Shown piece after piece: positions 1,906 through 2,868 of a stretch of 64,000 bases of DNA. Location of the stretch: NCBI RefSeq assembly GCF_003790525.1, contig NZ_CP033635.1. One strand, written 5' to 3'. Positions within the stretch are counted from its first letter, which is position 1, and each line of letters starts with the position of its first letter. The notes beneath the pieces were generated by a model that saw only the letters and a list, made by a program, of their open reading frames with translations, was not told the origin of the DNA and made no database searches. This stretch comes from Escherichia coli (lineage in GTDB: Bacteria; Pseudomonadota; Gammaproteobacteria; Enterobacterales; Enterobacteriaceae). The translations under genes were made by a program, and so were the position numbers.

Positions 1906-1928
1906 AATAAGGATGTTGTAACTAAAGT
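1906..1928. other. terB: Replication terminus site (TerB-like Tus-binding site) in the tus promoter region
   Basis: Sequence AATAAGGATGTTGTAACTAAAGT contains the conserved Ter core GTTGTAACTA; lies 10 bp upstream of the tus ATG, the known position of TerB. Confidence 0.8.
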
Positions 1929-1938
1929 GGTTAATATT

Positions 1939-2868
1939 ATGGCGCGTTACGATCTCGTAGACCGACTCAACACTACTTTTCGCCAGATGGAACAAGAGCT
2001 GGCTGCATTTGCCGCTCATCTTGAGCAACACAAGCTATTGGTTGCCCGCGTGTTCTCTTTGCCGGAGGTAAAAAAAGAGGATGAGCATAATCCGCTTAAT
2101 CGTATTGAGGTAAAACAACATCTCGGCAACGACGCGCAGTCGCTGGCGTTGCGTCATTTCCGCCATTTATTTATTCAACAACAGTCCGAAAATCGCAGCA
2201 GCAAGGCCGCTGTTCGTCTACCTGGCGTGTTGTGTTACCAGGTCGATAACCTTTCGCAAGCAGCGTTGGTCAGTCATATTCAGCACATCAATAAACTCAA
2301 GACCACGTTCGAGCATATTGTCACGGTTGAATCAGAACTCCCCACCGCGGCACGTTTTGAATGGGTGCATCGTCATTTGCCGGGGCTGATCACCCTTAAT
2401 GCCTACCGCACGCTCACTGTTCTGCACGACCCCGCCACTTTACGTTTTGGCTGGGCTAATAAACATATCATTAAAAATTTGCATCGTGATGAAGTCCTGG
2501 CACAGCTGGAAAAAAGCCTGAAATCACCACGCAGTGTCGCACCGTGGACGCGCGAGGAGTGGCAAAGAAAACTGGAGCGAGAATATCAGGATATCGCTGC
2601 CCTGCCACAGAACGCGAAGTTAAAAATCAAACGTCCGGTGAAAGTGCAGCCGATTGCCCGCGTCTGGTACAAAGGAGATCAAAAACAAGTACAACACGCT
2701 TGCCCTACGCCGCTGATTGCACTGATTAATCGGGATAATGGCGCGGGCGTGCCGGACGTTGGTGAGTTGTTAAATTACGATGCCGACAATGTGCAGCACC
2801 GTTATAAACCACAGGCGCAGCCGCTTCGTTTGATCATTCCACGGCTGCACCTGTATGTTGCAGATTAA
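1939..2868 (+). CDS. tus: DNA replication terminus site-binding protein Tus
   Basis: 309 aa from [10 protein letters not shown]; the tracked ORF begins 4 codons upstream at a GTG, but the ATG at 1939 matches the known N-terminus. Confidence 0.9.

Follow-up and report, generated by a model that had tools for sequence, protein, structure and literature searches.

The closest described relatives of the site considered here are TerB and TerC of Escherichia coli K-12 and the 'Ter1' sites of other Enterobacterales. TerB of K-12 (AATAAGTATGTTGTAACTAAAGT; the 23-mer is also printed in PMC4499146) occupies the rstB-tus locus and is separated from tus by a 10-bp gap (PMC8707476). PMC8347550 and PMC8707476, citing Roecklein 1991, place TerB of K-12 within the tus promoter and describe the autoregulation of Tus. 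The site is polar. According to Pandey et al. (PMC4499146), positions 1-6 form the non-permissive end and positions 19-23 the permissive end, the fork is arrested upon pre-melting 'up to AT(5) or GC(6)', and C6 has a role in the lock. TerC of K-12 (ATATAGGATGTTGTAACTAATAT), which was read from the MG1655 region between yneE and uxaB, has G at position 7 and belongs to the group, TerA-E and TerG, that Toft et al. (2021; PMC8707476) list as the high-affinity sites to which Tus binds in vivo. The 'Ter1' sites described in the same study lie just before the tus ATG, retain the G/C pair at position 6 and are 74-83% identical to K-12 TerB.

Variation among ter sites has also been described. Goodall et al. 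(2021; PMC8347550) compared them across phylogroups A, B1, B2, D and E and found that SNPs cluster at positions 1-5, 7 and 19-23, with the variability of position 7 explicitly noted. That paper, citing Coskun-Ari and Hill (1997), states that position 7 is without base-specific contacts to Tus. The same authors reported a large inversion in strain SMS-3-5 that spans terE, D, A, C and B and leaves the fork trap intact.

The window, by which is meant the whole 64-kb stretch of E. coli DNA that was analysed, carries such an element between rstB (end at 1863) and tus, with its numbering (positions 1 to 23) increasing towards tus (Table 1). The layout rstB-TerB-tus is that of MG1655, and the wider gene order rstA-rstB-tus-fumC-fumA is also as in K-12, with fumC and fumA following tus on the other strand. 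The element reads AATAAGGATGTTGTAACTAAAGT and matches MG1655 TerB at 22 of 23 bases (96%), the sole difference being at position 7, where it has G and MG1655 has T. A spacer of 10 nt (1929-1938, GGTTAATATT) leads to the tus ATG at 1939-1941. Hence the site shares with K-12 TerB its locus, its orientation to tus, its spacing and all bases except one, and it differs from it in position 7 and in facing the fork of the other replichore in the lineage of the window. With K-12 TerC it shares the entire 14-bp core GGATGTTGTAACTA, including G7, while the locus and the flanks (positions 1-5 and 20-23) differ and TerC is without a promoter role. It resembles the 'Ter1' sites in its placement and in the conserved G/C pair at position 6, but at 96% it is far closer to K-12 TerB than they are.

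Table 1. Features of the tus-TerB region in the window, and the corresponding terminus markers in the SMS-3-5 genome.
Feature	Coordinates	Strand	Evidence or remark
Window: candidate tus promoter	1878..1908	+	predicted from the sequence; overlaps Ter positions 1-3
Window: -35-like element TGGTCA	1878-1883	+	candidate, read from the sequence
Window: TG of candidate extended -10 (TGcTATAAA, 1898-1906)	1898-1899	+	adjoins TerB
Window: candidate -10 element TATAAA	1901-1906	+	alternative: TAAAAT at 1903-1908
Window: TerB, 23-bp Tus-binding replication terminator adjoining tus	1906..1928	+	22/23 to K-12; same allele in SMS-3-5
Window: Ter core, positions 6-19	1911..1924	+	sole consensus match; equals K-12 TerC core
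Window: Ter position 6, G, low-coordinate side of the site	1911	+	read from the sequence
Window: Ter position 7, polymorphic (G in window, T in K-12, rarely C)	1912	+	alignment and allele counts
Window: tus, terminus-site-binding protein	1939..2868	+	Pfam PF05472, E=4e-137; 308/309 to PDB 1ECR/2I06
SMS-3-5: TerB (with tus)	1,578,241	-	
SMS-3-5: TerC	1,640,443	-	
SMS-3-5: dif	1,656,736	+	

The Ter core consensus GNRNGTTGTAAYKA (positions 6-19) has a single exact match in the 64-kb window, where 0.03 would be expected, and a match arose in 3 of 100 shuffled sequences. When two mismatches were allowed, the search for further or degenerate Ter sites across the same 64 kb returned 26 hits against 24.9 expected, which is the level of chance; therefore the window has no Ter site other than the element before tus. 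The core consensus, the G/C pair at position 6 and a cognate tus gene in the same genome, as belong to a Tus-dependent Ter site, are all present. Literal identity with the K-12 23-mer is missing by the one base, G for T at position 7. On sequence comparison, this mismatch is allelic variation within the species and gives no ground for excluding TerB identity.

The cognate protein is equally well conserved. The tus product has 309 aa, of which 308 are identical to the crystallised K-12 Tus (PDB 1ECR, 2I06); the only difference is Ala23 (codon at 2005-2007) in place of Ile23. The same protein, WP_001295399.1, is annotated in SMS-3-5 and APEC O78. In RefSeq, too, matching genomes have tus annotated from the ATG at 1939. 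An in-frame GTG at 1927, inside TerB, lengthens the open reading frame by 4 codons, and is probably not used as a start. It is an artefact of mechanically taking the longest frame, as both the annotation and the crystallised protein begin at the ATG.

Because position, sequence (22/23), orientation to tus and the cognate Tus all agree, the element is very probably the chromosomal TerB of E. coli, functional by analogy with K-12, with G7 as a major natural allele. An initial sequence-only reading had proposed a TerB-like fork trap 10 bp before the tus ATG, and the sequence, the spacing and the identity of Tus bear this out. It had also named the loss of core positions as a finding that would speak against the proposal; all consensus core positions, including G6, are intact. 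The same observation bears on the idea of a decayed site, or pseudo-Ter, at which forks are no longer arrested. That idea has the single substitution in its favour and nothing further, and the intact core, the intact Tus and the presence of the locus in 5,415 of 5,426 complete genomes make it extremely unlikely. The site is an ordinary and already known TerB, and both its allelic variation and the inversion discussed below are in the literature.

The upstream end of TerB merges into the putative promoter of tus. The candidate elements in Table 1 place position 7 of the site 6 nt downstream of the candidate -10, and the transcription start of tus is predicted to fall inside TerB, near position 7. 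A scan of 1750-2050 for promoter and terminator consensus sequences found no canonical sigma-70 promoter; the candidate TATAAA lacks the T that the scan demands at the last position of the -10. A literature search for the tus promoter turned up no paper giving a mapped transcription start. With TerB overlapping the putative tus promoter and adjoining the ATG at 10 nt, bound Tus would also repress tus, as it does in K-12. This overlap and the resulting autorepression had been suggested from the sequence, and the arrangement is established for K-12 (PMC8347550 and PMC8707476, citing Roecklein 1991). The intergenic stretch between rstB and tus is itself polymorphic over 1869-1895, with CAT or GAC at 1893-1895 and G or A at 1877, and these differences lie within what would be the -35 and the spacer of the tus promoter. 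In the divergent strain F1140, the segment upstream of TerB is replaced.

The orientation of the site defines which forks it would stop. Position 1 lies at 1906 and positions 1-6 form the non-permissive end, therefore forks travelling towards higher window coordinates are predicted to be blocked. The sequence-only reading had come to the same polarity, which is supported by G6 on the low-coordinate side together with the structural account in PMC4499146. As in K-12, Tus would bind the 23-bp site. Any fork that comes in from the low-coordinate side would then unwind positions 1-6, upon which the C6 opposite G1911 would flip into its pocket in Tus, lock the Tus-TerB complex and arrest the fork. 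Forks coming from the high-coordinate side would displace Tus and pass through. For the window site, the binding, the lock, the arrest and the autorepression are all inferred from the K-12 work. Over most of the window the GC skew of the + strand is negative. This fits a region whose replication normally proceeds towards lower coordinates, the direction in which the site lets forks pass. Likewise, dif and TerC lie on the non-permissive side of TerB in SMS-3-5. By the GC skew and the SMS-3-5 map, the site is therefore oriented as a fork trap requires, permissive to forks derived from the origin and blocking to those leaving the terminus.

The single base that separates the window site from the K-12 string was followed across the species. 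Alleles were counted in 5,426 complete E. coli genomes by megablast with 33-34-nt queries centred on the variant; the exact 28-nt word that is required ensures that each counted match carries the queried base. The TerB-tus locus was present in 5,415 of these genomes, and 11 had no match to it. Over positions 1-7, the allele of the window (AATAAGG) was found in 1,371 genomes (e.g., SMS-3-5, UTI89 and ST131), the K-12 type (AATAAGT) in 2,360 (e.g., MG1655 and SE11), ATTAAGG in 1,258 (e.g., O157:H7 and APEC O78), ATAAAGT, with a 1-bp insertion of A before G6, in 269 (e.g., ECE204 and F1140), and AATAAGC in two (102651 and EA2). These five alleles account for 5,260 of the 5,415 genomes that bear the locus, and about 155 such genomes fall outside them. 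Further rare variants include A20 to G in one strain and G22 to T in another. A single match to the TerB-tus junction, out of 5,415, is on a record labelled as a plasmid, which is probably a mislabelled or misassembled replicon.

Summed over backgrounds, G7 and T7 each occur in 2,629 of the 5,426 complete genomes, a set that is skewed to clinical and laboratory lineages. The G7 of the window is one of two equally common TerB states in this database. A textbook element is confirmed, and the K-12 'reference' TerB is matched in frequency by a second allele, which calls for caution in genome searches that use exact K-12 Ter strings. The variant is natural and expected to be harmless, and about half of sequenced E. 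coli carry it. Variation at position 7 was already known from publication, and the present counts extend the picture to 5,426 genomes. The recovered alleles fit the pattern of Goodall et al., with ATTAAGG in APEC O78 and O157 and AATAAGG in the window. A contig scan with ATGTTGTAACTAANNNNNTTAATATTATG for position 7 in sister species gave one contig only, from E. coli (AATAAGG...AAATT).

These counts also decide between the trivial explanations of the mismatch. The sequence-only reading had given T for position 7 of K-12 TerB, had described the position as variable among Ter sites with G in TerC, and had left the choice between a strain polymorphism and an error of its own. When the window was aligned with MG1655 and seven further E. 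coli genomes, MG1655 showed T at position 7, in agreement with the string in PMC4499146; the allele counts and PMC8347550 confirm the variability, and MG1655 TerC indeed has G. The polymorphism therefore stands, with 1,371 genomes carrying the exact allele, and the error falls. A wrongly quoted reference that was in truth the same as the window sequence has practically no probability left, since MG1655 reads AATAAGTATGTTGTAACTAAAGT and the published string is the same; the difference is real, and this explanation is refuted. A sequencing error, or a mutation private to one strain, which the departure from the K-12 reference might suggest, fares no better. As many as 1,371 independent complete genomes contain the identical 33-mer, 1,258 more carry G7 on the ATTAAGG background, and SMS-3-5 has the same 23-mer, which refutes this explanation as well and leaves it a negligible chance.

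A natural allele may still be of functional consequence. G7 is expected to be fully functional because position 7 is N in the consensus and the core is that of K-12 TerC. It is nevertheless conceivable that the G7/T7 difference alters the off-rate of Tus or the kinetics of the lock, or that it changes promoter strength and hence the level of Tus. The similar frequency of two alleles beside an insertion allele, the place of position 7 just past the candidate -10, and the fact that the alleles do not strictly follow phylogroups (T7 in EcN_Sk, G7 in UTI89 and ST131) could be read in this way. Against it, TerC has the same core and counts among the sites that Tus binds in vivo with high affinity (PMC8707476), and descent, recombination and database sampling would suffice to account for the frequencies; a functional difference is accordingly judged improbable. 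Slightly less probable still is the more specific proposal that the roughly 50:50 split and the insertion allele are non-neutral, tuning the Tus level or the lock kinetics and with them the leakiness of the trap by lineage. Its appeal is the location of position 7, beside the flipping C6 and within the predicted start region of the tus transcript. If it were true, the leakiness of the fork trap would differ between E. coli lineages.

The distribution of the alleles among strains is not strictly tied to phylogroup. For example, EcN_Sk (NZ_CP172017.1) has the T7 haplotype of the K-12 type, together with the same RstB accession as K-12. We take this strain to be Nissle 1917, of phylogroup B2; UTI89 and ST131, which we likewise assume to be B2, have G7, and SE11, presumably B1, has T7 where APEC O78 has ATTAAGG. 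Such discordance suggests recombination in the terminus region.

The window is essentially SMS-3-5 sequence. About a dozen complete genomes are 100% identical to its first 12 kb, from which SMS-3-5 is about one base away. The part from 30,266 to 64,000 corresponds to SMS-3-5 1,549,999-1,516,266 in reverse orientation (99.997%), and the whole window (1-64000) is the reverse complement of SMS-3-5 from about 1,516,266 to 1,580,168, at 99.997-100% identity. Following the K-12 convention, the SMS-3-5 record begins with thrL on the + strand. K-12 has the order dif(-), TerC(+), TerB(+), and SMS-3-5 is the mirror image, with TerC and dif at coordinates above TerB. Two of the genomes that are 100% identical to the first 12 kb agree with the inverted terminus of SMS-3-5. 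The record of GN03551 begins with dnaA and runs opposite to K-12, with tus on the + strand at 2.55 Mb; the record of XH992 likewise runs against the K-12 direction, again with tus on the + strand. Strain 2D was left out as a witness of orientation, its record beginning inside a prophage.

The termination area is thus inverted in the SMS-3-5-type lineage of the window, as already published for SMS-3-5 itself. The inversion was seen here from TerB, TerC and dif, and for TerA, TerD and TerE it is given by PMC8347550. In consequence, TerB and TerC of this lineage stop the fork that the K-12 convention calls anticlockwise. The earlier expectation that TerB blocks clockwise forks holds for K-12 and fails for the SMS-3-5-type lineage, so the rule is not automatically transferable to strains other than K-12; the logic of the trap is the same in both.
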